Under the pieces are notes generated by a model. It was given only the letters and a program-made list of their open reading frames with translations. It did no database searches and was not told the DNA's origin. Of a DNA stretch of 61,879 nt, positions 27,953-59,990 are shown one piece after another (within the stretch, counting starts at the first letter, position 1; every line of letters begins with the position of its first letter). A program made the translations under genes and the position numbers. The stretch is from Planctomycetota bacterium (GTDB taxonomy: Bacteria; Planctomycetota; PLA2): contig DASUGR010000223.1 in assembly GCA_036273915.1 (NCBI GenBank), positions 1 to 61,879 on the forward strand, in the 5' to 3' direction.

Positions 27953-27991
27953 CGGCCGCCGGAACGCCCGGGGTTGCTATCCTGCTTCCCC

Positions 27992-36678: not shown

Positions 36679-38094
36679 CTACGCGTCGTAGTACATCGCG
36701 AACTCGTGCGGGTGGGGCCGCAGCGCGATCGCGTCGACCTCGTTCTCCCGCTTGTAGGCGATCCAGGCCTCGATGACGTCCGTGGTGAACACGTCCCCGC
36801 GTAGGAGGAAGTCGTGGTCCCGCTCCAGCGCGTCGAGCGCGGCGCCGAGGCTGCCCGGCGTCGAGGGGATCTCCTTCAGGATCTCCGGCGGCAGGTCGTA
36901 GATGTTCTTGTCCATCGGGCTGCCGGGGTTGATCTTGTTCTGGATGCCGTCGAGCCCGGCCATCATGATCGCGGCGAACGCGAGGTAGGGGTTGCAGGAC
37001 GGATCCGGGCAGCGGAACTCGAACCGCTTCGCCTTCGGCGAGGGGCTGTAGGTCGGGATGCGGATCGCGGCCGACCGGTTGCGCGAGCTGTAGGCGAGGT
37101 TGACCGGCGCCTCGTAGCCCGGCACCAGCCGGCGGTACGAGTTCGTCGTCGGATTCGTGATCGCGAGGATCGACGGGGCGTGGCGCAGCACGCCGCCGAT
37201 CGCCCACAGCGCCTCCTGCGAGAGGTTCGCGTAGCCGTCGCCGAAGAAGAGGTTCTTCTCCCCCTTCCACAGGCTGAAGTGGCAGTGCATGCCCGAACCG
37301 TTGTCGCCGTAGAGCGGCTTCGGCATGAACGTCGCCGTCATCCCGCGCTGGCGCGCGACGTTCTTCACGATGTACTTGTACTTCATCATCTTGTCCGCCA
37401 TCTGGACGAGCGGACTGAAGCGCATGTCGATCTCGCACTGCCCGGCGGTCGCCACCTCGTGGTGCTGCGCCTCGATGTCGATCCCCGCCTCCATCATCGC
37501 GAGCATCATGGCGGCGCGGACGTCCTGGAGCTGGTCGCTCGGCGGGACCGGGAAGTAGCCGGCCTTCGGGCCGATCTTGTAGCCGAGGTTCCGGCCATCC
37601 TCGGAGCGGCCGGTGTTCCAGTGGCCTTCGCGGCTGTCGATGCGGTAGGAGGCGTGGTTGAGGCCGCCCTCGTAGCTGATGTGGTCGAAGAGGAAGAACT
37701 CCGCCTCGGGGCCGAAGAAGGCGGTGTCGGCGATCCCGGTCGACTTCAGGTAGGCCTCCGCGTTCCGCGCGATGTTGCGCGGTGCGCGTTCGTAGGGCTG
37801 CCGCGTGATGCAATCCAGCACGTTGCAGCTGATCACGAGGGTCGGGTGCTCGAAGAACGGGTCGATCCAGGCCGTGGCCGGGTCGGGCACGACGAGCATG
37901 TCGCTCTGGTCGATCGTCTTCCAACCCCGGATCGACGAGCCGTCGAAGCCGAGCCCGTCCTCGAACGTGTCGATCGTGAGCGCCTCGACCGGCACGGTGA
38001 AGTGCTGCCACGTCCCGAGCAGATCGCAGAAGCGCACATCGACGGCTTCCACACTCTTTTCCCGCGCGAGCGCCAAAACATCCGACGGAGTCAT
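36679..38094 (-). CDS. glnA: glutamine synthetase type I
   Basis: 471 aa. Contains [33 protein letters not shown] and the adenylylation-loop-like [10 protein letters not shown]. Confidence 0.95.
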
Positions 38095-38106
38095 CTTGGT
38101 TTCACC

Positions 38107-38424
38107 TCAAATCGCGTCCGGCCCGCGCTCGCCCGTGCGAATGCGGACCACGTCCAGGAGTTCCGTGACAAAGATCTTTCCGAAGCCGGAGGCCTCTTCC
38201 GCCGAGAGTTGGCCTGCGCGCGTGATCGCGTCGACGGTCGGTTTCACGAAGTTCTCGTTGACCGCGATCTCGAGCCTTACCTTCTGGGCCAGCTCGGGGC
38301 CCCCGGGGCCGCGGAACACCCCGCGGCACTCGGTGACCGTCATCCGGAATACCTCGGCTTCGCCGAGCGCCGCCGCGACCGCATCGAGCCGCTCGGGTGC
38401 GAGGACCGCCGTGACGAGTTTCAC
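38107..38424 (-). CDS. P-II family nitrogen-regulatory-like protein with shortened T-loop
   Basis: 105 aa. Contains MKLVTAVLAP..LD.V..AL, MTVTEC, KVRLEIAV, GKIFV and VRIRTGE, matching the GlnB/GlnK scaffold. The gene is 12 nt upstream of glnA. Confidence 0.8.
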   Translation of the reverse strand: MKLVTAVLAPERLDAVAAALGEAEVFRMTVTECRGVFRGPGGPELAQKVRLEIAVNENFVKPTVDAITRAGQLSAEEASGFGKIFVTELLDVVRIRTGERGPDAI

Positions 38425-38623
38425 CGCGGCCTATCCTCGCCCATGGCGGGGCCGAAGCCAGCGCCGCGAGGCGCCGGTGTCCTCTTTCGATGCGGCATCT
38501 ATCTCCTTGCCGCGAAGGAGCTTACGCCTCCCCACCCCCCATCAACCGGCCCAATCGACCGATGAAAACGGCGCAAAGCGCGCTTGGCGGCGATGCCGGC
38601 GAGGATGCTACGATCCCGCCGCG

Positions 38624-39883
38624 ATGCGGCGGCGGGTGCTGGGCATGATCCTCGCGGGAGGCCGGGGGGAGCGACTCAAGCCCTTGACCCTCTACCGGTC
38701 GAAGCCCGCGGTCCCGTTCGGCGGGATCTACCGGATCATCGACTTCGTCCTCAGCAACTTCGTCAACTCGGGGATCAAGTCGATCTACGTGCTGACCCAG
38801 TTCAAGAGCCAGTCGCTCGCGGAGCACGTGGAGCGCGCGTGGGGCGGCACCAACCGGCGCGCGGACAACTTCATCATCTCCGTGCCCGCCCAGATGCAGA
38901 CGCCCGGCGAGGTCTGGTACGAGGGGACCGCGGATGCCATCTGGCAGAACATGAACCTGATCCACGACACGGTGCCCGACCTCGTCTGCATCTTCGGCGG
39001 CGACCACATCTACTTCATGGACATCTCCCAGATGATGCGGGAGCACATCGGCAGGGCCGCCGACGTGACGATCGCCGCCATCCCCGTGCCGCTCGAGGAG
39101 GCCTTCCGCTTCGGCGTGATCGAGGCGGCGCCCGACGGTCGGGTCAGGGCTTTCCACGAGAAGATCAAGGACGCGCCCACCCTCCCCTCGGACCCCACCC
39201 GTTGCTACGCCAGCATGGGGAACTACGTCTTCAGCCGGAAGATCCTCGAGGAGATGCTCGCCCGCGACGCGAAGGACCCCAACTCGAGCCACGACTTCGG
39301 CCGCGACATCCTGCCGCGGATGGTCGCGGACGGGCGCGCGGTCTTCGCGTACGACTTCGCGGCGAACCGCGTCCCCGGCCAGGAGGGCCGGCCGAACACC
39401 TACTGGCGCGACGTCGGGACGATCGAGGCCTATTTCGACTCCTGCCTCGACCTGAAGCAGGTCGTCCCGCAGCTCGACCTCTACAACCGCGACTGGCCGA
39501 TCAACACGGCCGCGTCGAGCGCCCCGCCCGCGAAGTTCGTCACCGGCTCCACGGGGTCGAGCGGCGAGGCCTACCAGAGCATCCTCGGCTCGGGCTGCAT
39601 CGTGAGCAGCGGACTGGTCAAGGACAGCGTCCTCGGAAGGAACATCCGCGTCCACAGCGGCGTCGAGGTCAGGGAGTCGATCCTCTTCGACGGCGTCATC
39701 GTCGAGCGGAACTGCAAGGTGCACCGCGCGATCATCGACAAGGACGTGCGGCTGCCGTCGGGGACCCACGTGGGCCTCGACGCCGACGCGGACCGCGCGC
39801 GCGGGTGGACCGTCACCGACACCGGCATCACCGTGCTCCCGAAGCAGCCGTCGGTCCGGCCGATCACGACGATGGACCTCTGA
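38624..39883 (+). CDS. glgC: glucose-1-phosphate adenylyltransferase
   Basis: ATG 38624 inside a longer track ORF. Contains ILAGGRGERLKPLTLYRSKPAVPFGG, WYEGTADAI and a C-terminal left-handed beta-helix region. Confidence 0.92.
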   Translation: MRRRVLGMILAGGRGERLKPLTLYRSKPAVPFGGIYRIIDFVLSNFVNSGIKSIYVLTQFKSQSLAEHVERAWGGTNRRADNFIISVPAQMQTPGEVWYEGTADAIWQNMNLIHDTVPDLVCIFGGDHIYFMDISQMMREHIGRAADVTIAAIPVPLEEAFRFGVIEAAPDGRVRAFHEKIKDAPTLPSDPTRCYASMGNYVFSRKILEEMLARDAKDPNSSHDFGRDILPRMVADGRAVFAYDFAANRVPGQEGRPNTYWRDVGTIEAYFDSCLDLKQVVPQLDLYNRDWPINTAASSAPPAKFVTGSTGSSGEAYQSILGSGCIVSSGLVKDSVLGRNIRVHSGVEVRESILFDGVIVERNCKVHRAIIDKDVRLPSGTHVGLDADADRARGWTVTDTGITVLPKQPSVRPITTMDL

Positions 39884-39942
39884 CCCCGGGAGATGCGAGG
39901 GGACCCGGGGGGCGGGAGACGCGTGCGCTACGATGCGCGCGG

Positions 39943-41259
39943 ATGGTCTCCTCGGCCGGCTGGCAATCGATCAAGTCGCGGTACCGGAATCGGTTCCGTA
40001 CGCCGGACCAGCTGGTCGCACACAACCTCGCGCGCTTCCGGCAGCGGCTCCTCTGGACGATGGAGCGGTCCCCCCACTACGCCGACGTCTGCCGCGAGCG
40101 CGGGATCGATCCCCGGGGGGCGCGGCCCGAGGACCTGCCGGTCCTGACGAAACGCGAGCTGATCGGGGACTTCGACCGGATCTGCACCCGGCCGGAGGTG
40201 CGGAAGGCCGGGGTGCATGCGTTCCTCGGCGGTTCCCGCGACCCGCAGGACCTCTTCCTCGGCCGGTACCACGTCGTCCACTCGTCGGGCACGTCGGGCG
40301 AGGTGTGCGCCGTCGTCTACAACCGGCGCGAGTGGATGCACGCGACCGCGAACTTCACGCGCGTGGCACGGCCCGGCCTCCAGCGCCGCCTCGCCTTCCT
40401 CGGCGCCGCGAACGGCCACTTCGCGGCCGTGGCGCTCGCGACCGCGCCGGTGTCGCGCGTCGCCGACCTCCTCTACCGCACGCGCGCGTTCCACGTGAAC
40501 CTCCCGACGCCGGAGATCCTCCGCGAGATCGAGGCGTTCGATCCGAAGGTGCTCGTGGGGTACGCGGGGGCGCTGCGGATCCTCGCCGAGGCGCAGCGGC
40601 ACGGGGACGTGCGGCTCCGGCCGAGTGTGGTCGTCAGCAGCGGCGAGGTGCTGCTCCCCGCGGACCGCGCGCTGCTGAAGGAGACGTTCGACGTGCCGGT
40701 CCGGAACCTCTACGCCTCGACGGAGCATCTCTACATGGCGATCGACCTCCCCGAGAGGCGGGGCGAGGGGATGTACCTGCTCGAGGACGACCTGATCTTC
40801 GAGCTCCGCGAGGACTGCACGCTGGTGACGAACCTCTTCAACCGCACGGTGCCGCTCTTCCGCTACCGGATGGACGACGTGCTGCGCCCGGCGGCGCGGC
40901 AGGGGCTCATGGGGCCCTACCGGATCGTCGAGGCGCTGGTGGGCCGGCGGGAACACGCGCCGGTCTTCGTGAACGCGAAGGGCGAGAAGGACTCGATCCA
41001 CCCGATCGTGCTCGCGGAGTTCTACGTGCGGGGGGTGAAAGCGTTCCAGTTCCGGCTGACCGGCGAGGACTCGTTCCGCTTCCTCTGGCAGGTGGAGGAG
41101 GGGGTGTCCGCGGGGGAGGTGGAGGGGGAGATCGCGGCGCGCCTGCGCGCGCTGCTCGACGAGAAGGGCATGCAGAACGTGCGCTTCACCCTCGAGCGCG
41201 TCCCGGAACTTGCACCGGATCCGGAGACCGGCAAGTTCCGCCTGATCGTGCCGGGGTAG
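39943..41259 (+). CDS. adenylate-forming enzyme, PaaK / coenzyme F390 synthetase-like
   Basis: ATG 39943. AMP-binding P-loop HSSGTSGE. The overall length (438 aa) and layout match phenylacetate-CoA ligase-like ANL enzymes. Confidence 0.75.
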   Translation: MVSSAGWQSIKSRYRNRFRTPDQLVAHNLARFRQRLLWTMERSPHYADVCRERGIDPRGARPEDLPVLTKRELIGDFDRICTRPEVRKAGVHAFLGGSRDPQDLFLGRYHVVHSSGTSGEVCAVVYNRREWMHATANFTRVARPGLQRRLAFLGAANGHFAAVALATAPVSRVADLLYRTRAFHVNLPTPEILREIEAFDPKVLVGYAGALRILAEAQRHGDVRLRPSVVVSSGEVLLPADRALLKETFDVPVRNLYASTEHLYMAIDLPERRGEGMYLLEDDLIFELREDCTLVTNLFNRTVPLFRYRMDDVLRPAARQGLMGPYRIVEALVGRREHAPVFVNAKGEKDSIHPIVLAEFYVRGVKAFQFRLTGEDSFRFLWQVEEGVSAGEVEGEIAARLRALLDEKGMQNVRFTLERVPELAPDPETGKFRLIVPG

Positions 41260-41323
41260 GTGGCGTCAATCGCCAGGGCCCGGTCTCTCCGGCAGATCCC
41301 GCCGCGCGGCGCGAGGGCGGGCC

Positions 41324-42013
41324 TCAGATCGCGTCGGCCGCCAGGCGGCGGACCGGCGGCACGGCCAGGACCGCGCGCGCGGAGACGTAGCCGAGACCCG
41401 CGCCGGCGACCACGTCCGAGAGGAAGTGCGCGCCCACGAGCACGCGCGAGGCCGCCACGCCGCACGCGAGCAGGAGGAACCACCCGCGCCCGCGCGGCAA
41501 GGCGCGGCCGAGCACCGTGAACGCCGCGAACGCGAGCGCCGCGTGGCCGGACGGGAGCGTGAGGTCCTTGTGCCTCCCCGAGAACGGCGGGCGGAAGAGC
41601 GCCGAGCCGTCGTTCCGCGGGAGGCCGTCCACGATCGTCATCGCCCCGCCGCGATCGACGAGCCGCTCCATGTCCCTTGGCGTCAGCTCCGCGGACGGGC
41701 GCAGCTTCCCGATCGCGGGCTTCAGCAGGAGCTGCCCGGCCGCGAACGCGAGAAGCACCGCGAGGCCGAGCGCGAGCGCCTGGCCGCGCCGCGCGGGCGC
41801 GAGGACGAGCATCGTGACCGCGACCACGACGACGAACCACCCCTCCCCCATCCGCTTGAGAAGCCCGAGGAGCGCCTCGACGGCCTCCGGGCGCTCGACG
41901 CCCTTCCCGACGAGGAGGTAGACGCGCCGGTCGACGAGGAACGCGAGGAGGAGCAGCGCGGCCCAGAGGGAGGCCCCGGAGCCCCACAGAATCCGGCCGC
42001 GGAGGCGGGTCAC
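41324..42013 (-). CDS. PAP2 superfamily phosphatase (membrane)
   Basis: GTG 42013 overlaps the upstream stop (GTGA). Motifs KLRPS, PSGH and SRVLVGAHFLSD are the three PAP2 signature blocks. The protein has several TM segments. Confidence 0.8.
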   Translation of the reverse strand: MTRLRGRILWGSGASLWAALLLLAFLVDRRVYLLVGKGVERPEAVEALLGLLKRMGEGWFVVVVAVTMLVLAPARRGQALALGLAVLLAFAAGQLLLKPAIGKLRPSAELTPRDMERLVDRGGAMTIVDGLPRNDGSALFRPPFSGRHKDLTLPSGHAALAFAAFTVLGRALPRGRGWFLLLACGVAASRVLVGAHFLSDVVAGAGLGYVSARAVLAVPPVRRLAADAI

Positions 42014-43215
42014 GCCGGCCAGAGGCCGACCGAGGCGCCGGTCCAGTCGAGGTCCTTGTTGAAGTTCACGCCCATCATCTTCCCGCGCGAGAGACGGAGA
42101 AGGCTCATGAGGAGCGTCATCGAGTGCTCCCCCTCGGGGCGCACGAACATCATCCGGACCTCGGCCTTCACGTCGTCGCCCTTGACGCTCCTGAACGCGG
42201 GCGCGTACTCGACCTTCTCCTGCAGGATCCACTTGTCGCGGTCGGCCGCGGGGATCGCGGCGACGTCCTCGGCCGCCGGCTCGACGTTCACGCCGGCGCC
42301 CGCGAACGAGTAGAGCGGCTTCAGCACGTACCGCGAGAGATCGTCCGGCACGCCCGAGCTCAGGAGCCGCGTCTTCGGCACCGCCCAGTGGTCGAGCGAG
42401 AGCATTGACTGCTTCGACCAGAGGTAGTACCACGCGGGGTGCGGCACCCACTCGACCTCGAGGTCCTCGTGGAAGGCGAACGTTCGCGGGAGCTTCGACT
42501 TCTCGAGCTCGTCGAAGACGACGCGCTGGAAGACGCGCTTCACGGGGATCCTCTTCCCGTCCTTCTCGCGATAGAGCTGGCGCCCCTCGCGCCGGATCGC
42601 GCTCAGGCAGACGGGATCGACCCCCCACCAGCGCTGCGTCGCGCGGAAGTCCGGGAAGGTCTTCTGCGTGTCGGGGTCGAGGTCGAGGAGGATGACCTCC
42701 TCGGGATCGTACTCCGCGAGCAGGGTCTCGCGGATGAGCGCCATCGCGCGCACGCGCTCGAAGCCGCCGAAGAACATCCGCCACTTGTCGGGCATCCCCC
42801 CGACCGCGGAAAGGTGCTCGGCCCAGACTTCCGAGAGGAGGATCTGGAAGCCGTAGAGCGACGGGAACCCCTGCAGCTCCACGAGCCGAGGCCCGAACGA
42901 CCCGTCCTCCTCGCGCACGATCGCGAAGTCGACCTGCGCCACCTGCGGCAGCGCGTCGCGGCGCGGCGCGCGGTAGGCGGGCGGGACGGCCTCCTCCTGC
43001 GCGGCGATCCAGAGCGGGTTCGAGAGCTGCGCGATGATCTCGGTCGCGGCGCGCGAGAAGCGCTCGCGGAAGTCCGCGGGGAAGAAGATCGGCGTCTCGG
43101 CGACGCGGAAGGGGACGCGGCAGGAGAGGCGGCGCTCGAGATCCTCGCGCACCCGGCGGTAGAGGTCCTCGGTCCAGGCGGCGTTGAAGCGTTCGCGCAG
43201 GACGGGGTCCATCAC
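42010..43215 (-). CDS. uncharacterised protein with ATP-grasp-like C-terminal half (GspS / circularly permuted ATP-grasp-like by eye)
   Basis: 401 aa. RLVELQGFPS, YVLKPLYSFAGAGVNV, WILQEKVEY and EVRMMFV resemble the nucleotide-binding strands of ATP-grasp amidoligases. The assignment is tentative. Confidence 0.6.
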   Translation of the reverse strand: MMDPVLRERFNAAWTEDLYRRVREDLERRLSCRVPFRVAETPIFFPADFRERFSRAATEIIAQLSNPLWIAAQEEAVPPAYRAPRRDALPQVAQVDFAIVREEDGSFGPRLVELQGFPSLYGFQILLSEVWAEHLSAVGGMPDKWRMFFGGFERVRAMALIRETLLAEYDPEEVILLDLDPDTQKTFPDFRATQRWWGVDPVCLSAIRREGRQLYREKDGKRIPVKRVFQRVVFDELEKSKLPRTFAFHEDLEVEWVPHPAWYYLWSKQSMLSLDHWAVPKTRLLSSGVPDDLSRYVLKPLYSFAGAGVNVEPAAEDVAAIPAADRDKWILQEKVEYAPAFRSVKGDDVKAEVRMMFVRPEGEHSMTLLMSLLRLSRGKMMGVNFNKDLDWTGASVGLWPA

Positions 43216-43234
43216 GCACCTCCTGCGCGGGGCG

Positions 43235-43263
43235 ATTCGGGGGGGCTCCGGGGGCCTGCCCCC
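43235..43263 (+). repeat. bipartite poly-G element copy (G-strand on +), near-identical to the copy at 51445
   Basis: attc-G7-ctcc-G5-cctg-C5, in the 49-nt gap between two minus-strand genes. Confidence 0.65.
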
Positions 43264-43264
43264 A

Positions 43265-44293
43265 TCAGACCTCGCCGTTCAGGTACTTGCCGTGCTTCAT
43301 GATCGGCACGCCGTCGAACCAGACGTCGAAGTCGCGGCCGACCACGTCGATGTGGGTCTCGGAGGTCCAGTCGGCGCCCGTGTGCTCGCTGTACGGATGG
43401 CCGAACGCGATGTGGACGCCCGGGATCTTCTCGTCCTGGAGCATGTTGCCGATCACGTCGCGCACGGCCAGGTTCGTGCCGAGCGCGAACTCGCCGACGC
43501 GGTTGCCGTTCTCCGCGTGGGACACGTACCGGCGGAAATCCTCGAGCGCCTCCTCGTTGTCGCACTCGAGGTCGACGATCCGGCTGTCCGAGATCGTGAT
43601 CTTCAGCGGGTTTCGCCGCATGTCGCCGTGCTTCGGCGCGAGCCACGTCCCGAGCGATCCGTCGACCACGTACACGCCGTCGACGCGCGCCGGCGCGGTG
43701 AAGGTCTCGCCGCCGGGCAGGTTCCCCCACTTCTCGGGCGAGATGATGCCGGGCGTCGGGATCCACTTGAGCCTCTTGTCGAAGGTCGCCCGGATCGCGG
43801 TGCCCGCGGGGGTCTCGCACGTGATCTCCTTCGCCTCCTTCGCCTTCTCCCACACGCGCCGGGTCAGCTTCTCCACCTCGCGGAAGTCGGCACGCATCCC
43901 CTCGAGCATGATCCGATAGGTGATGCCCACCATGTGGCCGTGGCGCATCCTCTTCCGGTTGACGATCGAGGTCATGGCGCGCCGCATGGCCAGTTCGCCC
44001 GGCTGGGCGGAGGCGGTGAAGAGGGAGACGTCCGCCCACTCGAGGACCTTCTCCATCTCCATCGGCAGGTGCCGGAGCGGCCGCTCCGCCATGTCCTCGA
44101 GGACCACCGAGCGGAACTCCCCCGCGGCGCGGGCGAGCTGCGCGGCCAGCGCTGCCGCGATCTCCAGGGACCCGCGGTCGGCGATCAGGACGGCGCGCTC
44201 GTCGGGCTGGACCCCGAGGCAGACGCGTACGGCATTCCGGGCACCCTCGTCGAGGAGGGGATCGTACGAAAGATCGAGAAGCTCGCTCTTCAC
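43265..44293 (-). CDS. aminopeptidase, peptidase family M29 (AmpS/PepS-like)
   Basis: 342 aa. GNLPGGETFTAP and VHIAFGHPY...THIDVV are typical of M29 thermophilic-metalloprotease-type aminopeptidases. Confidence 0.8.
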   Translation of the reverse strand: MKSELLDLSYDPLLDEGARNAVRVCLGVQPDERAVLIADRGSLEIAAALAAQLARAAGEFRSVVLEDMAERPLRHLPMEMEKVLEWADVSLFTASAQPGELAMRRAMTSIVNRKRMRHGHMVGITYRIMLEGMRADFREVEKLTRRVWEKAKEAKEITCETPAGTAIRATFDKRLKWIPTPGIISPEKWGNLPGGETFTAPARVDGVYVVDGSLGTWLAPKHGDMRRNPLKITISDSRIVDLECDNEEALEDFRRYVSHAENGNRVGEFALGTNLAVRDVIGNMLQDEKIPGVHIAFGHPYSEHTGADWTSETHIDVVGRDFDVWFDGVPIMKHGKYLNGEV

Positions 44294-44315
44294 GATGAGA
44301 ACTATATCCCTCAGG

Positions 44316-44329
44316 CCCCCCGGCCCCCC
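44316..44329 (-). repeat. bipartite poly-G element copy (C-strand on +)
   Basis: C6-gg-C6 in the 58-nt gap between the YbdK-like and M29 genes. Confidence 0.55.
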
Positions 44330-44351
44330 ACAGTTCGGGGCAGAAGGGCGT

Positions 44352-45467
44352 TCACATGGGCGGGAGCCCGTGCTCCGTCTCCTTGATGATGTAGTCGACG
44401 ACGCTCTTCAGGTCGCCCTTCTCCCTGTAGGTGTGGACCTGGCGGTCCGCGCCGGTTCCGCGCGCGATGATCTCGCGGAGGTAGCCGAGCTCCGAACGGA
44501 CGCCCAGGTCGTCCACGACCTCGTCCACGAAATCGAGGATCTCGCCGATCAGCTGCGGGGTGTCGACCTCCTGCATCTTGCCGAGGTCGATGAGCTTGCC
44601 GGAGAGCCCCCACCGCGCCGCGCGCCAGCGGTTCTCCTGGATGAGCGAGCGCCGGTGGAGCCGGAAGGAGAGGTTTCTCTGGTGCAGGCAGTAGAGCTTC
44701 GCGACGAGCGCCTGGCAGAGCGCGGCGATCGCGACGGTCTCGTCCACGCGCATCGGCATGTCGCAGCACCGGAACTCGAGCGTCGGGAAGCGCCAGTGGG
44801 GCCGAAGGTCCCACCAGATCATCTTCCCGTCCTGGATCGAGTTCGTGCGGATCAGGTCCTTCACGAGCTCCTCGTACTCCGCGAAGCCGCCGTGGAACGC
44901 GTCCGGGATCCCGGTGCGGGGGAACTTCTCGAACACCTTCACGCGGTAGGACTTCCAGCCGGTCTCGCGGCCGGTCCAGAAGGGCGAGTTGACGGAGAGC
45001 GCGAGGATGTGCGGCACGAAGTAGCGCGCCATGTTGAAGATGTGGATGAGCGTCTCGCGATCCTCGATCCCCACGTGGATGTGGAGGCCGAAGATCAGGT
45101 TGGCGCGCGCGACGACCTGGAGGTCGTCGAGGATCTTGTTGTAGCGCTCGTTCTCGGTCGTGGCGACGTCGGCCCAGTGCGTGAACGGGTGCGTCCCCGC
45201 GGCCCCGATCCGCAGCCCGTGCTCGCGCGCGACGTTGCAGATCTGGGCACGCGTGTGCGTCACCTCGCGGCGCACCTCGGCGATGTCGCGGCAGACCTGC
45301 GAGCCGATCTCGACCACGCTCTGGTGCAGCTCGCGGCGGATCTTCTCGTGGAGCTGCATCTCGCCCGCCGCGAACATCTGCGAGATGTGCGAGCGGAGCT
45401 CCCGCGTCTCCGGGTCGATGACCTGGAGCTCCTCCTCGATGCCCAGCGTGAAGTTCGGCAGCCTCAC
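44352..45467 (-). CDS. carboxylate-amine ligase, YbdK / GCS2 family
   Basis: GTG 45467 overlaps the upstream stop (GTGA). Contains FTLGIEEELQVID, GTHPF, LHIHVG and NSPFW, the hallmark blocks of glutamate-cysteine-ligase family 2. Confidence 0.85.
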   Translation of the reverse strand: MRLPNFTLGIEEELQVIDPETRELRSHISQMFAAGEMQLHEKIRRELHQSVVEIGSQVCRDIAEVRREVTHTRAQICNVAREHGLRIGAAGTHPFTHWADVATTENERYNKILDDLQVVARANLIFGLHIHVGIEDRETLIHIFNMARYFVPHILALSVNSPFWTGRETGWKSYRVKVFEKFPRTGIPDAFHGGFAEYEELVKDLIRTNSIQDGKMIWWDLRPHWRFPTLEFRCCDMPMRVDETVAIAALCQALVAKLYCLHQRNLSFRLHRRSLIQENRWRAARWGLSGKLIDLGKMQEVDTPQLIGEILDFVDEVVDDLGVRSELGYLREIIARGTGADRQVHTYREKGDLKSVVDYIIKETEHGLPPM

Positions 45468-46396
45468 GGGGCGCGCTCCGGCCAGTTGCCCGTCATCTCG
45501 AGCTTGCGCGGCTCCTTCACCCTCCGGATGAGGAAATCGGCCGACTTGTCGAGGATCCACTTGAAGTTCGCCTCGCCGACGCTCGGGGACGCGGCGTCCG
45601 GGCACGGGTTCGTGAAGTCGATGGCGTACGGGACCCCGCCGCGCACGGCGAGCTCGACCGTGTTGAAGTCGTAGCCGAGCGCCTTGCAGAGGGCCCTGCA
45701 GTCGCGCTCCATGCGCGTCTTCAGCGCCTTGTCGATCGGCGGCGGGTTGCGCACGTACCGCTCGTGGAAGGGCGCCTTCGGGTCGTACCGCATCAGGTGC
45801 ACGTGCTCGCGGCCGAGCACGTAGCAGCGGTAGTACTCCTCGAAGACGATCTCCTCCTGCGCCATCATGCAGAGATCGCCCGTCTGCTCGTACGCGTGGA
45901 AGAACTCGTCCGGGTCCGCGCAGCGGTAGACGTGCTTCCAGCCGCCGCCGTTCGCCGGCTTCAGGTAGATCGGGAACTTGAGGTAATCGAAGACCTCCTC
46001 CCACTCGAGCGGGAAGCGGAGGTTGCTGAACGACGTGCCCTCGGTGCCCGGGGGGTGGCGCTTGTGCGGCAGCAGCACGGTGCGCGGCACCGCGACGCCC
46101 GCCTGTTCGGCGACGATCGTCCCGAAGTACTTGTCGTCGGCGGAGAACCAGTAGGGGTTGTTGACCACGTGCGCGCCCTGGCCGGCGGCCTGCTTCAGGA
46201 GCGTGCGATAGAAGGGGACCTCGTGGCTGATCCGGTCGAGGATCAGGTCGTACGGCAGCTTCTTGTCGATGCGCAGCGCGCCCACGACGAGCGGCTCGCA
46301 AAGGACCTCGCCCTTGCTCCTCCGGTTGATCTCCTGGGCGAGGGCGCCGGGAAACTCGCGCTCCATGCCGTACAGGAGGCCGATTCTCTTCGCCAT
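45464..46396 (-). CDS. ATP-grasp domain ligase (RimK / glutathione-synthetase-like)
   Basis: ATG 46396 after ggaggg. Contains FPIYLKPANGGGWKHVY, MMAQEEI and NTVELAVRGGVPYAIDFTN, the ATP-grasp strands. 310 aa. Confidence 0.8.
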   Translation of the reverse strand: MAKRIGLLYGMEREFPGALAQEINRRSKGEVLCEPLVVGALRIDKKLPYDLILDRISHEVPFYRTLLKQAAGQGAHVVNNPYWFSADDKYFGTIVAEQAGVAVPRTVLLPHKRHPPGTEGTSFSNLRFPLEWEEVFDYLKFPIYLKPANGGGWKHVYRCADPDEFFHAYEQTGDLCMMAQEEIVFEEYYRCYVLGREHVHLMRYDPKAPFHERYVRNPPPIDKALKTRMERDCRALCKALGYDFNTVELAVRGGVPYAIDFTNPCPDAASPSVGEANFKWILDKSADFLIRRVKEPRKLEMTGNWPERAP

Positions 46397-46540
46397 GAAG
46401 GCCCTCCGTTGGGCGCGGATCCTATCAAAAGGAGGAAGGGGAGGGGTTCCGGGGAACCCGCGCCGACGGCCCCCGGCATCGTCCGCCGAAACAACCCCCC
46501 CCGCTTCCCTTTCCTCCGCCGGTCGAGGAGACTTGGCCTC

Positions 46541-47254
46541 ATGGAGCGCCACTACGACACGTTCACATCCAAGAACCTCGGGGGCAGGAAGATCGAGTAC
46601 CTCTGGTTCGGCCGGGCGGGCCGCCCCCTGGTCATGTTCCCCACGTCGGGCGGGCGGTTCCACGAGAACGAGGATCGGAACCTCGTCGGCACGCTCTCCG
46701 ACTACGTGGACCAGGGGCGCCTCCAGATCTGCTGCATCGATGCGTTCAACGACGAGACATGGAACAACAGCCGCCTGCACCCGGCCGAGCGGGTGCAGCG
46801 CCACGACGTCTTCGACCGCTATCTGTCGGAGGAGCTCTTCCCGATGGTCGCGGCGCGGGCGGGGCGCGGCGACACGGCGGTGTACGGGTCGTCGATGGGC
46901 GGCTACCACGCGGTCAACTTCGCGGCGCGCCATCCGGAGCAGGTGAAGCGCTGCATCGCGCTGTCGGGGCTCTTCGACAACCGGCGGATGCTCGACGGCT
47001 TCTGGGACGACCTCTGCTACTACCACTGCCCGATGAGCTTCATCCCGAACATGGACGAGGGGTGGTGCCGCCGGCTCGCGCAGGTGGAGTGGGTGATCGC
47101 GACCGGCGAGACGGACAGCCTCGTGAACGAAACCCGCAACTTCACGCACGTGCTGCGGTCGAAGGGGATCCCGGTGCACTGCGAGGTGTGGCCCGGCGTG
47201 TTCGGCCACGACTGGCCCTTCTGGAAAGAGCACCTGCGGCGGTTCCTGCCGTAG
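46541..47254 (+). CDS. alpha/beta-hydrolase, 'putative esterase' family
   Basis: ATG 46541. Nucleophile elbow YGSSMGGYHA and a late GHDW histidine. It is divergent from the ATP-grasp gene. Confidence 0.75.
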   Translation: MERHYDTFTSKNLGGRKIEYLWFGRAGRPLVMFPTSGGRFHENEDRNLVGTLSDYVDQGRLQICCIDAFNDETWNNSRLHPAERVQRHDVFDRYLSEELFPMVAARAGRGDTAVYGSSMGGYHAVNFAARHPEQVKRCIALSGLFDNRRMLDGFWDDLCYYHCPMSFIPNMDEGWCRRLAQVEWVIATGETDSLVNETRNFTHVLRSKGIPVHCEVWPGVFGHDWPFWKEHLRRFLP

Positions 47255-47338
47255 GAACGCAGCGTCCCACCCCGCGCCGCGCCCCCCGTCGCCCCAAGAT
47301 GTCGATCCCGGAGCCCGGGTGCCGCACTAAAATATTGT

Positions 47339-47382
47339 TTGCAATCTTTTCACGGCGTGATACATTTTATTTCACGTCGTGA
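47339..47382 (+). promoter_or_regulatory. AT-rich sigma70-like promoter (TTGCAA-16-TACATT) with two TCACG-N-CGTGA palindromic operators
   Basis: ttgcaa at 47339-47344 and tacatt at 47361-47366. Palindrome 1, tcacggcgtga (47350-47360), fills the spacer. Palindrome 2, tcacgtcgtga (47372-47382), covers the GTG start at 47379. The centres are 22 bp apart. Confidence 0.45.
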
Positions 47383-48617
47383 ACAGTATTCGACCGCGCC
47401 TCCTCAAACCCGCGGTCCTGAAGGCGCTGTCCCGATTCCCCGTGGTCGTGGTCATGGGCGCGCGGCAGACCGGCAAGACCACGCTCGTGGCCGGCGGCGA
47501 GATCGCGAGGGGCCGGACCTACCGTGCGCTCGACGACTACGAGGTCCTCGAGCGCGCCACGACGAGCCCCGACGCCCTGCTGCAGGACGCCGAGCGGATG
47601 ACGATCGACGAGGTGCAGCAGACCCCGGATCTGCTTCGCGCGATCAAGCGGGCCGTCGACCGGTCCCGGGTGCCCGGCCGGTTCCTGCTCACGGGTTCGG
47701 CCAACCTCCTGATGATGCAGCGGATCTCGGAGAGCCTCGCCGGACGCGCCGTGTACCTCACGCTGTGGCCCATGACGGAGGCAGAAAAGCGCGATCGCGC
47801 GGGTGCATCGCCGTGGGACGCCTGGGTCGACGCGGCTGACGCGGGCGCCGCCCGCGGCCTGGCCGTGCCGCGAGCCGCCGTCGGAACGTGGCAGTCGCGC
47901 GCTCTCGCCGGCGGATACCCGCCCGCGGCCCTCTCGGCGGAGCCGGGCGCGCGAGCGCAGTGGTTCGACGGCTACGTGCGGACCTACCTCGAGCGCGACC
48001 TCCAGTCCATCTCGTCGATCTCGTTGCTTCCCGACTTTCGACGCCTCATGAAGCTAGCGTCGATCCGCGTCGGCCACGTCCTCAACCAGAGCGAGCTGGC
48101 GCGCGATGCCGCGCTCTCCGTGCCCACCGCCCACCGCTACCTCAACCTGCTGGAGACGTCGTACCAGATCGTGCGGCTCGCGGCGTACGCGACGAGCCGG
48201 ACGAAACGCCTCGTGAAGTCGCCGAAGCTCTACTGGACGGATACGGGCCTCGCCGCGCACCTGGCCGGCTTGCCTCCGGGAGCCGAGGAGGACATCCCGG
48301 GCGCGCTGCTCGAGAACCTCGTCCTGTTGCAGATCCTCGGCTGGCGGGAGACCGCCGTGCCGCGCCCGGAGATCCACTACTGGCGGACCCAATCCGGCGC
48401 CGAGGTGGACTTCGTGATCGAGTCGGGCCGGCGCCTCCTGCCGATCGAGGTGAAGGCCGCGCGAAGCGCACGTCCCTGCGACGCCAAGGGCCTCGAGGCG
48501 TTCCTCGACGACAACCCCGAGCGAGCGCCGTTCGGCATCCTTCTGTACGGCGGCCGCGAGGTCCTCGTCCTGACGGAGAGGATCCTCGCCGTGCCCTTGG
48601 ATTGCGTCTGGGGTTGA
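47379..48617 (+). CDS. AAA+ ATPase with C-terminal DUF4143 / PD-(D/E)xK-like module (COG1373-type)
   Basis: Walker A GARQTGKTT and Walker B MTIDEVQ. The C-terminal GAEVDFVIE...LLPIEVKA resembles a restriction-endonuclease-fold motif. Confidence 0.85.
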   Translation: MNSIRPRLLKPAVLKALSRFPVVVVMGARQTGKTTLVAGGEIARGRTYRALDDYEVLERATTSPDALLQDAERMTIDEVQQTPDLLRAIKRAVDRSRVPGRFLLTGSANLLMMQRISESLAGRAVYLTLWPMTEAEKRDRAGASPWDAWVDAADAGAARGLAVPRAAVGTWQSRALAGGYPPAALSAEPGARAQWFDGYVRTYLERDLQSISSISLLPDFRRLMKLASIRVGHVLNQSELARDAALSVPTAHRYLNLLETSYQIVRLAAYATSRTKRLVKSPKLYWTDTGLAAHLAGLPPGAEEDIPGALLENLVLLQILGWRETAVPRPEIHYWRTQSGAEVDFVIESGRRLLPIEVKAARSARPCDAKGLEAFLDDNPERAPFGILLYGGREVLVLTERILAVPLDCVWG

Positions 48618-48645: not shown

Positions 48646-50118
48646 ATGGCCGCGCTGATGCGTGTCTTCGTGCTGCCCCTGCTGCTGGCCGCGGCCGCCG
48701 TGGCGCAGGACGAGGGCGGCCTCACGGTAAAGCCGCTCGCGCCGGATCCCGCGCGCGACGCGCGGATCGAGGAGCTGATCGCCCAGCTCCTGAAGATCGA
48801 GAAGCCCTACGACGGCATCACGTGCTCGTCTGGCGGCGGCGTCGGGTTCGACGCGCTTCGCGCGAACGAGGACACGCCGCCGGCGTTCCGCGAGCTGGTC
48901 CGGCTCGGCCCGGCCGCGATGCCGGCGCTGCTGAAGCACCTCGACGACAAGCGCGAGACGAAGCTGTCGCTCAGCTGGGTCGACGAGGACATGGGAAGCC
49001 GCATGTTCGCCAGACCGGAGATCCCCGCCATGAGCCCGGAGGAGCGCGTCCGCATCCGCCGCGTGCTCGGCCCGGCCGCGGAGAAGGAGGGCCCCGTCGA
49101 CGCCCCTCTCGTGGATCAGATCGAAAGCCACGCGGTCACCGTCGGCGACTGCTGCTTCGTGATCCTCGGGCAGATCGTCAACCGTTCCTACGAGGCCGTG
49201 CGCTACCAGCCATCGCTGCTCGCCATCGTGTCGAGCCCGACGCGGGAACCGAGGATCGCCAAGGTGCTGCGCGGCCGCTGGGGACGTGGCGACCCCCGAC
49301 AGATCCTCGCGGAATCGCTCCTCTACGACTTCCGCCAGAGGAAACGGCCGGGGATGTGGCCCGGCGCGGCGGAGCGCCTCCTGGTCTTCTTCCCGGAGTT
49401 CGGCGATGAGGTCGTCGCGAGGCGCATCGGATCCATCCGTTGGGACGACGGTTTCGAGGAGTACTGCGGCCACGAGCTGCTTCGCCGCGTCCTCCCGACG
49501 GGCCGCCCGCGCATCCGCGCCGCGTGGTTGGATCTCCTCGGTCCGGACCGCGCGCCTCAGACGCAGCTCTCCGGCATCCGGGCCCGGCCTGAGGACGCCG
49601 GGGACGACTTCCGGGACCGGGTGCGAGCCCTGCGCGACCGGCCGTCCGATGTCGACGTCGTGGTCGTGTGCGTCGCGGTCCTGAACGGCGAGAAGGCTCC
49701 GGCCACGTTCGCGTGGCTCAAGGGGGAATTCCCGAAGGTCGAGACGCGCGACGCCGAGAGGACCCGAGCGATCCTCGCCGCGCTCGCCGCCCTCGACGAG
49801 GACGAGAGCCTCCCGATCTTCCGCGCGCACATCGAGAAGCTCGCGGAATGGGGCTGGGGCAACGCGATCGTCGCGCTACGCGAGACGCCGCGGGCCAATC
49901 TGGCGGCCGCGCTCTTCCGGGCCAAGCTCGACGCGACCGACCCCGTCGGCCCGCACGTCGTGCCCGCGCCCGAGTGGGTGACGGGCGAGACGCGCTGGTG
50001 CGACCTGGCCGCGGCGGTCATCGCCCACGCGAGGCTCGAGCTCGGCTTCGATCCGAAGGCGACGGTCGAGGAGCGCGACCGCCGGATCGCCGCGATCCGC
50101 GCCGCGCTCGCGAAGTAG
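48646..50118 (+). CDS. secreted hypothetical protein
   Basis: Signal peptide MRVFVLPLLLAAAAVAQDEG. Coding-like composition, no recognised domain. Confidence 0.55.
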   Translation: MAALMRVFVLPLLLAAAAVAQDEGGLTVKPLAPDPARDARIEELIAQLLKIEKPYDGITCSSGGGVGFDALRANEDTPPAFRELVRLGPAAMPALLKHLDDKRETKLSLSWVDEDMGSRMFARPEIPAMSPEERVRIRRVLGPAAEKEGPVDAPLVDQIESHAVTVGDCCFVILGQIVNRSYEAVRYQPSLLAIVSSPTREPRIAKVLRGRWGRGDPRQILAESLLYDFRQRKRPGMWPGAAERLLVFFPEFGDEVVARRIGSIRWDDGFEEYCGHELLRRVLPTGRPRIRAAWLDLLGPDRAPQTQLSGIRARPEDAGDDFRDRVRALRDRPSDVDVVVVCVAVLNGEKAPATFAWLKGEFPKVETRDAERTRAILAALAALDEDESLPIFRAHIEKLAEWGWGNAIVALRETPRANLAAALFRAKLDATDPVGPHVVPAPEWVTGETRWCDLAAAVIAHARLELGFDPKATVEERDRRIAAIRAALAK

Positions 50119-50226
50119 CGCAAGCCTCTTTCGTCCCGCACGCAAGGAACTTCCGAGACACGCGACCCGGGCATCGGGCTATCGTGGGGGCACGCGGTTC
50201 GCAAGGCCACCGCGGGAGGTGAGGAC

Positions 50227-51441
50227 ATGAGGAGCCCGCTGCTGATCGGCCTCGTCTGGGCGGCGACCGTCGCCGTCGCGTTCCTGCTCGGAGGGCAACT
50301 GAAGCCGGAAGCCACCGCGCGCGACACGGCGCGTCCCCCGAGCGAGCACGCGCCCGCCCCGCTTCCGGCCCCCGAAGCCCCCCCGCGTGACGGCGCGCCG
50401 GAGACGCGCATCGCAAAAGAGCCGGCCGCCGCGCGGAGCGACGCGACGGTCGCGGCGGATTCCCTTCCCGTCGAGCCCGTGACCGTCGAGCCGGGCATGC
50501 AGCCGGCCGACCTCTCCTCGCTCTTCATGCGCTACGCCGAGAAGAAGCTCGCGGAGGGTCCCGAGGGCCACAAGGAGCTCTTCCGCGAGTTCGACCGGCT
50601 CGTGCGCGACAAGGAGGTCCGGAACCTCCTCCGCGACGAGCAGCAGGCGATGCCGCTCCTCTACCCGTGGGTCCGGTTCCTCGTGGACCACGACCGGCAG
50701 ATCATCGGGATGATGGAGACGATCTACAAGACCGCCGCCGAGGACCCGCAGTGGTTCCAGGGCCTCGACGACGATCCGCTGGAGATGTTCGCGGAGGGGC
50801 TCGCGCTGCTGCTGCCCGGCGCCACCGACGCGGAGCAGCTCGCGCGCTTCCGCGCCTACGCCGAGCAGATCGTCGCGCTGCCGAAGGAGTCGCTCCCGGA
50901 GGCGCTCCAGAAAAACCTCTCCGACATCCAGCGCGACATCGAGTGGTGGTCGCCGGCCGTGAAGCCCGAGGACCTCGCGAAGGCGCTCGAGGACCCCTCG
51001 GTCCCGGTCGCGAAGAAGATCGGCCTCCTGCGGAGGGCCTCGCCGGAGTCGCTCAGCGGCGTGGACGTGACGCCGGTGCTCGCCGCGGGGATCCGCGAGG
51101 GGAGCTCGCAGGCGCTGTACGTCGTCCAGCGGTTCCAGGGCTCCGTGTCCGTGCCGACGCTCGACGCCGCGTTCCTCGACGCGGTGGCCTCGGGCAGCCA
51201 GCAGTGGCACCAGATCGGCACCTACGCAAGCGTGACCGGGCGGAACACGTGGGAGACGGCCCGCCCGTTCGTCGACACCGGCCTCGCCCGCGGCGGCAAG
51301 ACGACCGAGGCGTTCGCGCAGAGCCTCTACCTCTTCCAGCACCTCGAGATCCCGAAGGAGTACGTGGCGAACGTGGTCACGAGCTACGCGCTCCCGGACG
51401 CGGTCCGGACACAGCTCAAGAAGCGGTTCGGGATCGAGTAG
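50227..51441 (+). CDS. membrane-anchored hypothetical protein
   Basis: ATG after gggaggtgagg. N-terminal TM segment LLIGLVWAATVAVAFLLGG. No recognised domain. Confidence 0.55.
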   Translation: MRSPLLIGLVWAATVAVAFLLGGQLKPEATARDTARPPSEHAPAPLPAPEAPPRDGAPETRIAKEPAAARSDATVAADSLPVEPVTVEPGMQPADLSSLFMRYAEKKLAEGPEGHKELFREFDRLVRDKEVRNLLRDEQQAMPLLYPWVRFLVDHDRQIIGMMETIYKTAAEDPQWFQGLDDDPLEMFAEGLALLLPGATDAEQLARFRAYAEQIVALPKESLPEALQKNLSDIQRDIEWWSPAVKPEDLAKALEDPSVPVAKKIGLLRRASPESLSGVDVTPVLAAGIREGSSQALYVVQRFQGSVSVPTLDAAFLDAVASGSQQWHQIGTYASVTGRNTWETARPFVDTGLARGGKTTEAFAQSLYLFQHLEIPKEYVANVVTSYALPDAVRTQLKKRFGIE

Positions 51442-51444
51442 GCG

Positions 51445-51472
51445 AATCGGGGGGGGCTCGGGGGCCTGGCCC
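51445..51472 (+). repeat. bipartite poly-G element copy (G-strand on +)
   Basis: aatc-G8-ctc-G5-cctggccc, starting 4 nt after the stop at 51441. Compare the copy at 43235. Confidence 0.65.
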
Positions 51473-51495
51473 GCAGAATACCGATAGAGGAGAAG

Positions 51496-51948
51496 GTGCA
51501 GCCCCCCGGCCCCCCCACGATCGACGAGCTCCAGGAGGAGTTCCGCGCGAAGCAGGAGCGCGACCTCGCGCGGGCGCACGCACGGGAGAAGGCCCGTCGC
51601 CGGAACGGCACGATCGCTGGAGCCGCCGCCGGCCTCGCGGCGGTCGCGGTCACCGCGGGCGCCACGCGCACGGCGCTCTTCTGGCACTCGTTCCTCCTCG
51701 AGGCGGTCCTCGGCGCGGTCGCGGGCTACGTGCTCGCGCGCACCGGCGGCGGGCTGCTCAAGGGGATCGTTCTCTTTTCGGGCGCGTACATGCTCGCGTT
51801 CTTCCTGCGCGCGTCAGGCCTCGACCCGGCGGCCGTGTTCCAGGCGGGCGACATCCGCGCCGCGCCGGCCGTCCAGGGCCACTTCACGAGCCTCTGCTTC
51901 CTCGTGAGCGCGGGCGCGGCGATGGGCCATATCGTGGCCGACCGCTAG
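51496..51948 (+). CDS. small integral membrane protein, unknown function
   Basis: 150 aa with a charged N-terminus followed by 3-4 hydrophobic segments. It ends 10 nt before glgB. Confidence 0.5.
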   Translation: MQPPGPPTIDELQEEFRAKQERDLARAHAREKARRRNGTIAGAAAGLAAVAVTAGATRTALFWHSFLLEAVLGAVAGYVLARTGGGLLKGIVLFSGAYMLAFFLRASGLDPAAVFQAGDIRAAPAVQGHFTSLCFLVSAGAAMGHIVADR

Positions 51949-51957
51949 AATGCCTCC

Positions 51958-55666: not shown

Positions 55667-55772
55667 GGTACTCGGTACCGAGAGCGGCGCGCATATCCCT
55701 AGACTTGGCCATCAGTTACGACGGCGAGACCCGGACATTGGGGTCCGGGTTTTTGCCCGGGGGAAGGGGTCC

Positions 55773-56831: not shown

Positions 56832-56871
56832 GATCCAAGTCTAGCGCCCGCGCGGCCCGCCCGCGCGGGCG

Positions 56872-59513: not shown

Positions 59514-59990
59514 TCAGAATGGCGCAATGGTTGCGCTCGCGCTCGGCCACGGCACCTTGCGCACGAGCTTCACGAGGCGCGAGGCCGTGACCGTGTCGAC
59601 GACCTCCGCCTCGTACGCGACCGCGCCGGGCATCACGTCCACGAGGACCACCTGCATCCGCAGCGCGCCCGGCCCGCCCCGCGGCACGACCTTCCAGCGC
59701 GGCGCCGCGCCGGCGACGAGCGCCGCCTGCAGCTCCTCGGCGGTCTTGCGGATCGCCTGGTCCCCGAGCCCCTTCGCGGACGACCCGTCCGCGAGCCGGA
59801 TCAGCACGGGCTCGACCACGAGCTTGTCGTAGACCCGGAAGTCCGCGCCCGGGTGCCGCCACTCCCACAGGTCCGGGTCCGAGGCGCTCTGCCTCAGGTC
59901 GGAATAGTCGCCGAGGTAGCCGGACGCGTAGGGCGGCCGGCTCGCGCAGGCGGCGACAGCCAGGACGAGGACGAGAAGGGCGCGGCACAT
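59514..59990 (-). CDS. lipoprotein, DUF3313-like
   Basis: Lipobox LVLAVAACAS followed by GYLGDYSDL, typical of DUF3313 lipoproteins. Confidence 0.65.
   Translation of the reverse strand: MCRALLVLVLAVAACASRPPYASGYLGDYSDLRQSASDPDLWEWRHPGADFRVYDKLVVEPVLIRLADGSSAKGLGDQAIRKTAEELQAALVAGAAPRWKVVPRGGPGALRMQVVLVDVMPGAVAYEAEVVDTVTASRLVKLVRKVPWPSASATIAPF

Follow-up and report, generated by a model that had tools for sequence, protein, structure and literature searches.

The ligase and hydrolase cluster

We analyzed a stretch of 61,879 nucleotides from a Planctomycetota bacterium (GTDB lineage Bacteria; Planctomycetota; PLA2; GenBank assembly GCA_036273915.1, contig DASUGR010000223.1, positions 1 to 61,879 of the forward strand), referred to here as the window, which contains a cluster of genes encoding ATP-dependent ligases and hydrolases. 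Five of these genes form a core that is conserved in other phyla. Four of the five lie on the minus strand and encode, in order, a predicted classical three-domain ATP-grasp ligase (45464–46396), which is the first gene of the operon and served as the anchor of our neighborhood analyses; a YbdK-family GCS2 carboxylate–amine ligase with a GTG start codon (44352–45467); a short M29-like metallopeptidase of 342 residues (43265–44293), which occupies a variable slot for amide hydrolases; and a predicted ATP-grasp ligase of 400–401 residues that resembles glutathionylspermidine synthetase (GspS) and eukaryotic glutathione synthetase (42010–43215). Neither the first nor the last of these ligases has a Pfam model. 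The fifth core gene, on the plus strand, encodes an alpha/beta hydrolase esterase (PF00756; 46541–47254) and is divergent from the ligase operon, from which it is separated by an intergenic region of 144 bp (46397–46540) that we presume to hold a shared promoter or regulatory region.

Genes were called from third-position GC frame plots and start-codon mapping, which yielded one gene per segment; at a G+C content of ∼71% in the window, raw lists of open reading frames (ORFs) are swamped by shadow ORFs. All gene coordinates given in a preliminary description of the cluster were reproduced, its family assignments hold up in the main, and the two GTGA stop/start overlaps that it had pointed out are both real, one between the ATP-grasp and GCS2 genes (45464–45467) and the other between the gene of the 401-residue ligase and a downstream gene for a PAP2 phosphatase (42010–42013). 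Because the orthologs of the 401-residue protein begin with MDP, the ATG at 43212 is probably the genuine start codon, which would give a protein of 400 residues. By-eye reading of the core protein sequences revealed neither signal peptides at the N-terminus nor membrane segments, and these proteins are thus most likely cytoplasmic. The 144-bp spacer contains no sigma-70 consensus, a promoter and terminator scan gave no signal exceeding the shuffled expectation, and Rfam had no matches in positions 39000–48000 of the window or in seven related loci.

Conservation of the five core genes across phyla

Two sets of loci were assembled. For Set 1, one genome per GTDB species was scanned, and 80 loci were taken from at least 554 matching stretches and supplemented with three contigs reached via encoding contigs. 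For Set 2, a scan with more divergent homologs supplied 80 metagenome loci from a clade whose ATP-grasp ligase is 45–52% identical to that of the window; this clade belongs to Bacteroidota/Chitinophagaceae and includes the cultured Flavihumibacter fluvii, Panacibacter sp. DH6, and Sediminibacterium sp. KACHI17. The window proteins and the proteins that replace them elsewhere were mapped onto all loci by tblastn, and flanking ORFs were clustered de novo. The neighborhood counts cover only loci with enough flank and are given below in the order Set 1, Set 2.

At 64 of 66 and 48 of 59 loci, no more than 3 kb separate the esterase gene from the ATP-grasp gene, and the GCS2 gene is directly downstream of the ATP-grasp gene at 62 of 79 and 54 of 63 loci, with a gap of at most 35 nt in 41 of 63 loci. 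An amide hydrolase is encoded in the next slot at 50 of 64 and 28 of 43 loci. The GspS-like ligase is present at 32 of 64 and 25 of 43 loci, and nearly all of these (29 of 32 and 25 of 25) have a nearby gene for either an M29 protein or a class-I glutamine amidotransferase (GATase)-like protein; where both partners are present, gene maps place the hydrolase gene directly upstream of the ligase gene. The order and orientation of the five genes are kept in Planctomycetota, Acidobacteriota, Gemmatimonadota, Eremiobacterota, and Bacteroidota (160 sampled loci). The esterase, ATP-grasp, GCS2, peptidase, and GspS-like genes are therefore co-conserved, with clustering far beyond chance, and the amidoligase–hydrolase neighborhood that the preliminary description had claimed is conserved for these genes. 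De novo clustering of the flanking ORFs revealed no co-conserved extra gene, precursor or other small ORF, regulator, or transporter. A reading of the locus as a pathway for a ribosomally synthesized and post-translationally modified peptide, such as a graspetide, was rejected, given that the 144-bp spacer is too small for a precursor-peptide ORF and no extra ORF is conserved.

The cluster had first been described as an eight-gene unit, which we rejected on the co-occurrence counts: five of its genes are co-conserved, but the genes for PAP2 and for an F390-synthetase/PaaK-like adenylate-forming protein are not conserved in the 160 loci. The gene encoding the PAP2 membrane phosphatase (41324–42013, minus strand; PF01569, 68 bits, above cut-off) recurs in a single relative (L004, 93% identity), as a fragment where the contig ends; it is a recent lineage-specific addition outside the conserved system, probably co-transcribed with the operon, which it joins at a GTGA overlap. 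The F390-like gene (39943–41259, plus strand), which is convergent to the operon, has no counterpart at any of the 160 related loci and is a bystander outside the system. The gene for the claimed adenylating enzyme is present, but its product scores below the family cut-offs (70 bits for TIGR02304, which requires 252, and 19.6 for the AMP-binding domain PF00501, which requires 29.9) and is only a distant relative of the ANL/F390-synthetase-like enzymes. At a related Planctomycetota locus (L005, 69% identity), the genes for the ATP-grasp ligase, the M29 protein, and the GspS-like ligase are retained and have glgC and glnA after them, whereas those for GCS2, PAP2, and the F390-like protein are all missing. 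Because this locus shares the glgC–glnA pair found downstream in the window (glgC, 38624–39883, plus strand; glnA, 36679–38094, minus strand), PAP2 and the F390-like gene were inserted after the two lineages had split. On the other side of the cluster, directly downstream of the esterase gene, a gene for an AAA_14/DUF4143 ATPase (47379–48617, plus strand) is conserved in no related locus.

The cluster is flanked by housekeeping genes of glycogen and nitrogen metabolism, namely glnA and glgC (36679–39883) and a gene for a GlgB-like branching enzyme (51949–53826). The window also encodes proteins with VWA domains and HEAT repeats (10291–13488 and 55773–56840, both minus strand) and a MacB/FtsX-type ABC transporter (53851–55711), all seemingly unrelated to the operon. 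Long ORFs with a strong coding signal (third-position GC of 0.92–0.97) and no Pfam match lie at 5993–7639 (plus strand), 8505–10328 (minus strand), and 59932–61458 (plus strand), and two runs of three Pfam-less genes in the same range of third-position GC lie at 48646–51948 and 23329–29407 (both plus strand).

Three ligases and two exchangeable hydrolases

The preliminary description had recognized three amidoligases in the cluster, and this is correct as judged by the model scores of GCS2 and by AlphaFold2 and Foldseek for the other two. The GCS2 protein matches PF04107 over its full length (219.6 bits against a cut-off of 21) and exceeds the cut-off of NF010039 (503 bits against 371), and its PDB relatives are the YbdK structures 1r8g and 1tt4 (E-values of 1e-45 to 1e-48). 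Its sequence G9-I10-E11-E12-E13, invariant in 65 orthologs, agrees with the GhExE signature of the Mg/ATP site of GCS2 ligases (PMC2588565). Scores fall below cut-off against the models for cyanobacterial GshA (TIGR02048, 69 bits against 249), EgtA (TIGR03444, 19.8 against 370.8), and plant glutamate–cysteine ligase (TIGR01436, 20.8 against 463). These comparisons classify the protein as YbdK-type and outside the curated models of validated glutamate–cysteine ligases.

Sequence-only searches of the PDB were uninformative for the two orphan ligases, so that structure prediction was needed for both. The classical ATP-grasp ligase has no Pfam match, including none to Dala_Dala_lig or GSH-S. Its only NCBIfam matches are rimK_fam (TIGR00768), which is the best of them (28 bits against a cut-off of 143, E-value of 1e-6), and LysX_arch (15 bits against 276, E-value of 0.01), both below cut-off. 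Ddl/VanA was its only match among PDB sequences, to which a profile search added the ATP-grasp cores of carboxylases and Ddl. An AlphaFold2 model built on the homolog alignment (pLDDT of 88) was matched by Foldseek to Ddl/VanA, LysX/ArgX, RimK, and MdnB at E-values of ∼1e-13, with the best TM-scores to LysX (3vpd; 0.70/0.76). Of the 527 PDB matches at an E-value of at most 1e-3, the top 50 are all ATP-grasp ligases. The model thus confirms a predicted three-domain classical fold that is comparably close to Ddl/VanA, LysX/ArgX, RimK, and MdnB. The residues K146, E248, D260, and N263 are invariant in 82 orthologs and, by analogy, would be the ATP-binding lysine and the Mg-binding acidic and asparagine residues.

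Distinctive invariant motifs (DRISHE, NNPxW, and DDK) mark the ATP-grasp proteins of this clade. Homologs number at least 8000 clusters at 90% identity, and among 1.84 billion representatives, 260 of the 50%-identity clusters match at an E-value of at most 1e-30 and 1485 at an E-value of at most 1e-3. The closest homologs are found in metagenome-assembled genomes of Planctomycetota (93% for L004) and, next, in Acidobacteriota (∼60% identity). By sequence, the family is an isolated clade of its own. Some homologs carry long, low-complexity C-terminal tails that contain no Pfam domains: repeated AT-hook-like KRRGRPAK units in P0246 and P0251, a histone-H1-like region rich in lysine, alanine, and proline in P0245, a poly-acidic stretch ahead of a weak helix–hairpin–helix match below threshold in P0244, and GGYLIGGG repeats in P0254. 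These tails may tether the homologs to nucleic acid or to a complex. The ATP-grasp ligase of the window has no such tail.

For the 401-residue protein, the sole match to a sequence model is a sub-threshold one to GSP_synth (PF03738, 18.1 bits against a cut-off of 29.3), and a profile search of PDB sequences returned no matches. Its AlphaFold2 model, also built on a homolog alignment (pLDDT of 93.3, pTM of 0.91), was matched by Foldseek to human and yeast glutathione synthetase (E-values of 4e-13 to 1e-11) and further to the GspS-like protein 3n6x, YgiC (7uk8; TM-scores of 0.61/0.63), YjfC, and the E-64 ligase Cp1B. Across the matched structures (8fbz, 2hgs, 1m0w, 3n6x, 7uk8, 7uk6, and 9cjn), E-values range from 4e-13 to 1e-6 and TM-scores from about 0.5 to 0.63, and Foldseek gave no significant match beyond the glutathione-synthetase/GspS branch. 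The predicted structure confirms an ATP-grasp-like fold of the eukaryotic-type glutathione synthetase/GspS branch, and the glutathione-like analogy drawn in the preliminary description gains support from this likeness. In Minicystis rosea (CP016211.1; L084, 10001–11212), the GspS-like ligase stands alone, with no esterase, ATP-grasp, or GCS2 gene nearby.

The M29-like protein scores 47 bits against PF02073 (cut-off of 27), covers only profile positions 200–359 of 406, and is ∼70 residues shorter than typical M29 enzymes. It aligns to AmpS of Staphylococcus aureus (1zjc), with E196, E268, and H294 matching conserved AmpS motifs. These three residues together with H314 and D316 are invariant in 11 orthologs, and we take all five to be the M29 metal ligands, as in the AmpS structure. 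The dedicated M29 peptidase of the preliminary description needs to be revised: a peptidase slot is indeed conserved, but M29 is its minority occupant, and in most loci the slot holds a class-I GATase-like protein with a Cys-His-Glu set of residues. This protein, which is not encoded in the window, has ∼334 residues in Acidobacteriota and ∼275 in Bacteroidota, and contains the invariant motifs GGPG, C155-H, and H271-P-E273. The Flavihumibacter ortholog is called as PF00117, which also matches 3 of 25 members of the Acidobacteriota type (E-values down to 1.3e-4); the Acidobacteriota and Bacteroidota forms are linked by BLAST at an E-value of 1e-9. The sole PDB profile match of the protein is to the GATase domain of GMP synthase at the HPE motif (E-value of 0.19). 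The operon of Flavihumibacter fluvii (CP092333.1; L165, 11286–15346) contains, between the GCS2 and GATase-like genes, a gene for an Amidohydro_3 protein of 542 residues whose N-terminus resembles a lipoprotein signal, and after the GspS-like ligase gene a Cupin_2 gene.

The esterase matches PF00756 with 56.9 bits (cut-off of 22). Its G116-x-S118-x-G120 motif, D192, and H223 are invariant in 73 orthologs and form a Ser-Asp-His triad. Its best PDB sequence relatives are esterases of the esterase-D/FphF type (E-values of ∼1e-7); characterized S-formylglutathione hydrolases (3e4d and 7yvt) match at E-values of 0.002–0.006 in the nucleophile region only, and generic esterases match better. The gene occurs on either strand and, in some lineages, is on the same strand as the operon and directly upstream of it. 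The Chitinophagaceae-type clade instead has, in the esterase slot, a second PF00756 lineage that shows no similarity by BLAST to that of the window. Catalytic residues are invariant in all five core protein families. Because both the hydrolase and the esterase slots have been refilled by unrelated lineages, the pattern suggests that an amide hydrolase and an ester hydrolase activity are required whatever their ancestry, and that activities rather than particular proteins have been selected.

Possible function and relation to known systems

Working from the gene identities, folds, conserved residues, operon structure, and co-conservation described above, we infer substrates, an order of steps, and a type of product. 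We consider it about an even bet that, by analogy with their superfamilies, the five core genes encode a self-contained cytoplasmic system that makes and degrades a small gamma-glutamyl-type (pseudo)peptide or peptide–amine conjugate. In such a system, the GCS2 ligase would phosphorylate a carboxylate, typically the gamma-carboxylate of glutamate in its family, and join it to an amine; the ATP-grasp ligase, which is RimK/LysX/Ddl-like, would add a further residue through an acyl-phosphate; and the GspS-like ligase would activate a terminal carboxylate of the product and couple it to another amine, which would be an amino acid or a polyamine. The adjoining M29 or GATase-like hydrolase may be the cognate amidase, resembling the synthetase/amidase pair of Gss. 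In Escherichia coli Gss, the glutathionylspermidine synthetase and amidase are fused in one protein. The esterase would act on the molecule in an ester or thioester form, hydrolyzing it. More specifically, the product could be a new glutathione-like low-molecular-weight thiol or a peptide–polyamine conjugate, with the gamma-glutamyl bond made by GCS2, extension by the orphan ATP-grasp ligases, and the pool controlled by the synthetase/amidase pair and a thioesterase; we regard this narrower version as tentative and rather improbable.

Several observations weigh against such a system. Every chemical step rests on superfamily analogy. The GspS-like ligase also occurs alone, in M. rosea, and hence is not restricted to the operon. 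GCS2 is missing at some loci (among them L005, L098, L100, and L115) at which the ATP-grasp ligase, the hydrolase, and the third ligase remain, so that the coupled two-step ATP-grasp/GCS2 synthetase of the preliminary description is not obligatory. The third ligase and the hydrolase, in turn, are missing from about half of the loci, which may mean that there are two loosely linked modules instead of one linear pathway; the unit would then possibly consist of an esterase, ATP-grasp, and GCS2 module and a hydrolase and GspS-like ligase module. The GATase-like protein could also supply ammonia to the GspS-like ligase, making the product an amide, instead of hydrolyzing a product, although the M29 alternative in the same slot argues against this role. 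Finally, identities of ∼60% across phyla and of 85–95% among Chitinophagaceae genera are unusually high and more in keeping with housekeeping enzymes or enzymes directed at macromolecules than with enzymes for specialized metabolites.

This last point is one of several that would favor a system for tailing a protein or peptide, in which the ATP-grasp ligase, perhaps together with the other ligases, would attach amino acids to a carboxylate of a protein encoded elsewhere and the hydrolases would act as erasers. RimK modifies ribosomal protein S6 and LysX acts on LysW, and it is to LysX/ArgX and RimK that the ATP-grasp ligase shows its best TM-scores and only NCBIfam matches. The C-terminal tails of some homologs (AT-hook, lysine/alanine/proline-rich, and acidic with a weak helix–hairpin–helix) suggest tethering. 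Also in favor, the Pup ligase arose from the GCS2 family (PMC2588565). However, glutamate ligases for small molecules also belong to the RimK family, the relatives of the third ligase act on small peptides, the ATP-grasp ligase of the window lacks a tail, and neither a candidate gene for the substrate nor a small conserved ORF was found within the cluster or next to it. On balance, we think protein tailing unlikely.

We are similarly doubtful of a gamma-glutamyl route for catabolism, detoxification, or salvage of the Puu/Ipu type, in which GCS2 would add glutamate as a handle to an amine substrate, further steps would transform it, and the M29 or GATase-like hydrolase would remove the glutamyl group. 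The pairing of GCS2 with a class-I GATase-like hydrolase mirrors the logic of PuuA/PuuD and echoes reported neighborhoods of GCS-like ligases and GATase-like thiol peptidases (PMC2588565), M29, an amide hydrolase of unrelated origin, can occupy the hydrolase slot, and the Flavihumibacter operon carries an added Amidohydro_3 gene. Yet no oxidoreductase, aminotransferase, or transporter that would serve the transformation is co-conserved, three ATP-consuming ligases would be excessive for catabolism, and the pairing of the hydrolase with the third ligase is closer than its pairing with GCS2.

A role in making cell-wall precursors, with the ATP-grasp ligase as a non-canonical Ddl-like dipeptide or depsipeptide ligase feeding MurF, strikes us as very improbable. 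Among the Foldseek matches of the ATP-grasp ligase, the lowest E-values belong to Ddl/VanA, which also gave its sole PDB sequence match, but its identity to Ddl is only 12–19% and its TM-scores to Ddl are no better than those to LysX or RimK. In 12 loci of the Acidobacteriota/Thermoanaerobaculia type (including L061, L062, L066, L070–L072, L074, L075, L079, L081, and L083), the gene immediately after that for the ATP-grasp ligase or GCS2 is a genuine murF (TIGR01143, 395 bits; cut-off of 288.6). In one of these loci (L072, 10951–12384), the ATP-grasp gene and murF make up a two-gene unit, and purK and purE come next in convergent orientation. Genes of the CofD family (PF01933) and GlmU-like genes lie downstream at other Thermoanaerobaculia loci. 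The murF adjacency is confined to related Acidobacteriota lineages, however, being absent from Planctomycetota and the Bacteroidota-type set, and such a scheme leaves the esterase, GCS2, and GspS-like partners without a role. Chance juxtaposition of unrelated genes, which accounts for the F390-like and PAP2 genes (the AAA_14/DUF4143 gene is likewise unconserved), is scarcely credible for the five core genes, for which it is refuted by the counts of order and orientation in at least five phyla and 160 loci.

A small-molecule system of the kind proposed above would be of interest for several reasons. Two of the three ligases represent large families that have neither a Pfam model nor a characterized member, and the operon occurs in hundreds of species from at least five phyla, including cultured isolates. 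Its fixed context offers an experimental route to the function of the ligases and possibly to a widespread metabolite, and the activities that the system cannot do without are revealed by the repeated replacement in its slots. If the product were a thiol or peptide–polyamine conjugate, this would give the YbdK family its first physiological role and would extend across Chitinophagaceae, Acidobacteriota, Planctomycetota, Gemmatimonadota, and Eremiobacterota. Full-text literature searches, whose coverage excludes the 2009 survey by Iyer et al., found no paper or experimental work on the five-gene operon, and they found no characterized pathway of this composition, in agreement with the preliminary description.

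The known systems most similar to the operon are the glutathione and glutathionylspermidine pathways (GshA, GshB, and Gss). Like them, the operon would perform successive ATP-dependent carboxylate–amine ligations starting with a GCS-type enzyme, it places a GspS/glutathione-synthetase-fold ligase beside an amide hydrolase, and it includes a member of an esterase-D-type (thio)esterase family. Unlike them, it has a YbdK-type GCS2 that scores below the cut-offs of validated glutamate–cysteine ligases, its ATP-grasp ligase is not GshB and has no GSH-S Pfam match, its hydrolase is a separate M29 or GATase-like protein and not a fused CHAP domain as in Gss, and nothing in it points to cysteine or a thiol. 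The operon fails membership of canonical gshA, gshB, egtA, RimK, and Ddl by sequence models, and ergothioneine and canonical glutathione readings were rejected on model scores and co-occurrence counts.

With pathways that use a gamma-glutamyl handle, namely PuuA/PuuD and the EgtA/EgtC pair of ergothioneine synthesis, the operon shares a predicted glutamate-activating ligase and an amidotransferase-like hydrolase able to remove a gamma-glutamyl group; it differs in lacking EgtB/EgtD or Puu oxidoreductases, in the score against the EgtA model given above, and in having two more ligases and an esterase. Within individual families, GCS2 resembles E. coli YbdK (1r8g) in belonging to the same family over its full length, with NF010039 above cut-off and a GhExE-type motif, and differs in its fixed ATP-grasp/esterase/GspS-like operon context. 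We know of no such gene context for E. coli ybdK, and, to our knowledge, the physiological substrate of YbdK has been unclear since the structure paper of 2004. RimK, LysX, and ArgX give the best structural superposition with the ATP-grasp ligase and its only NCBIfam sequence matches, although the ligase is far under the family cut-offs (28 against 143 bits), belongs to an isolated clade, and has no S6-like or LysW-like partner encoded nearby.

The 401-residue protein is most reminiscent of E. coli YgiC and YjfC (7uk8 and 7uk6), which were reported to be peptide–spermidine ligases (Pederick et al. 2023, cited in PMC12568646). It shares with them its size (∼390–400 residues), its predicted fold (TM-scores of 0.61/0.63 to YgiC), and the form of a stand-alone GspS-like synthetase domain with no amidase domain, whereas its sequence similarity to them is barely detectable (E-value of 0.3) and its genomic context is different. 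From comparative genomics, Iyer, Aravind, and colleagues (2008–2009) predicted neighborhoods in which GCS-like or ATP-grasp ligases are linked to GATase-like thiol peptidases and would make glutathione-like peptides (PMC2588565), and the operon shares with these amidoligase–peptidase neighborhoods the general theme of ligase plus peptidase.

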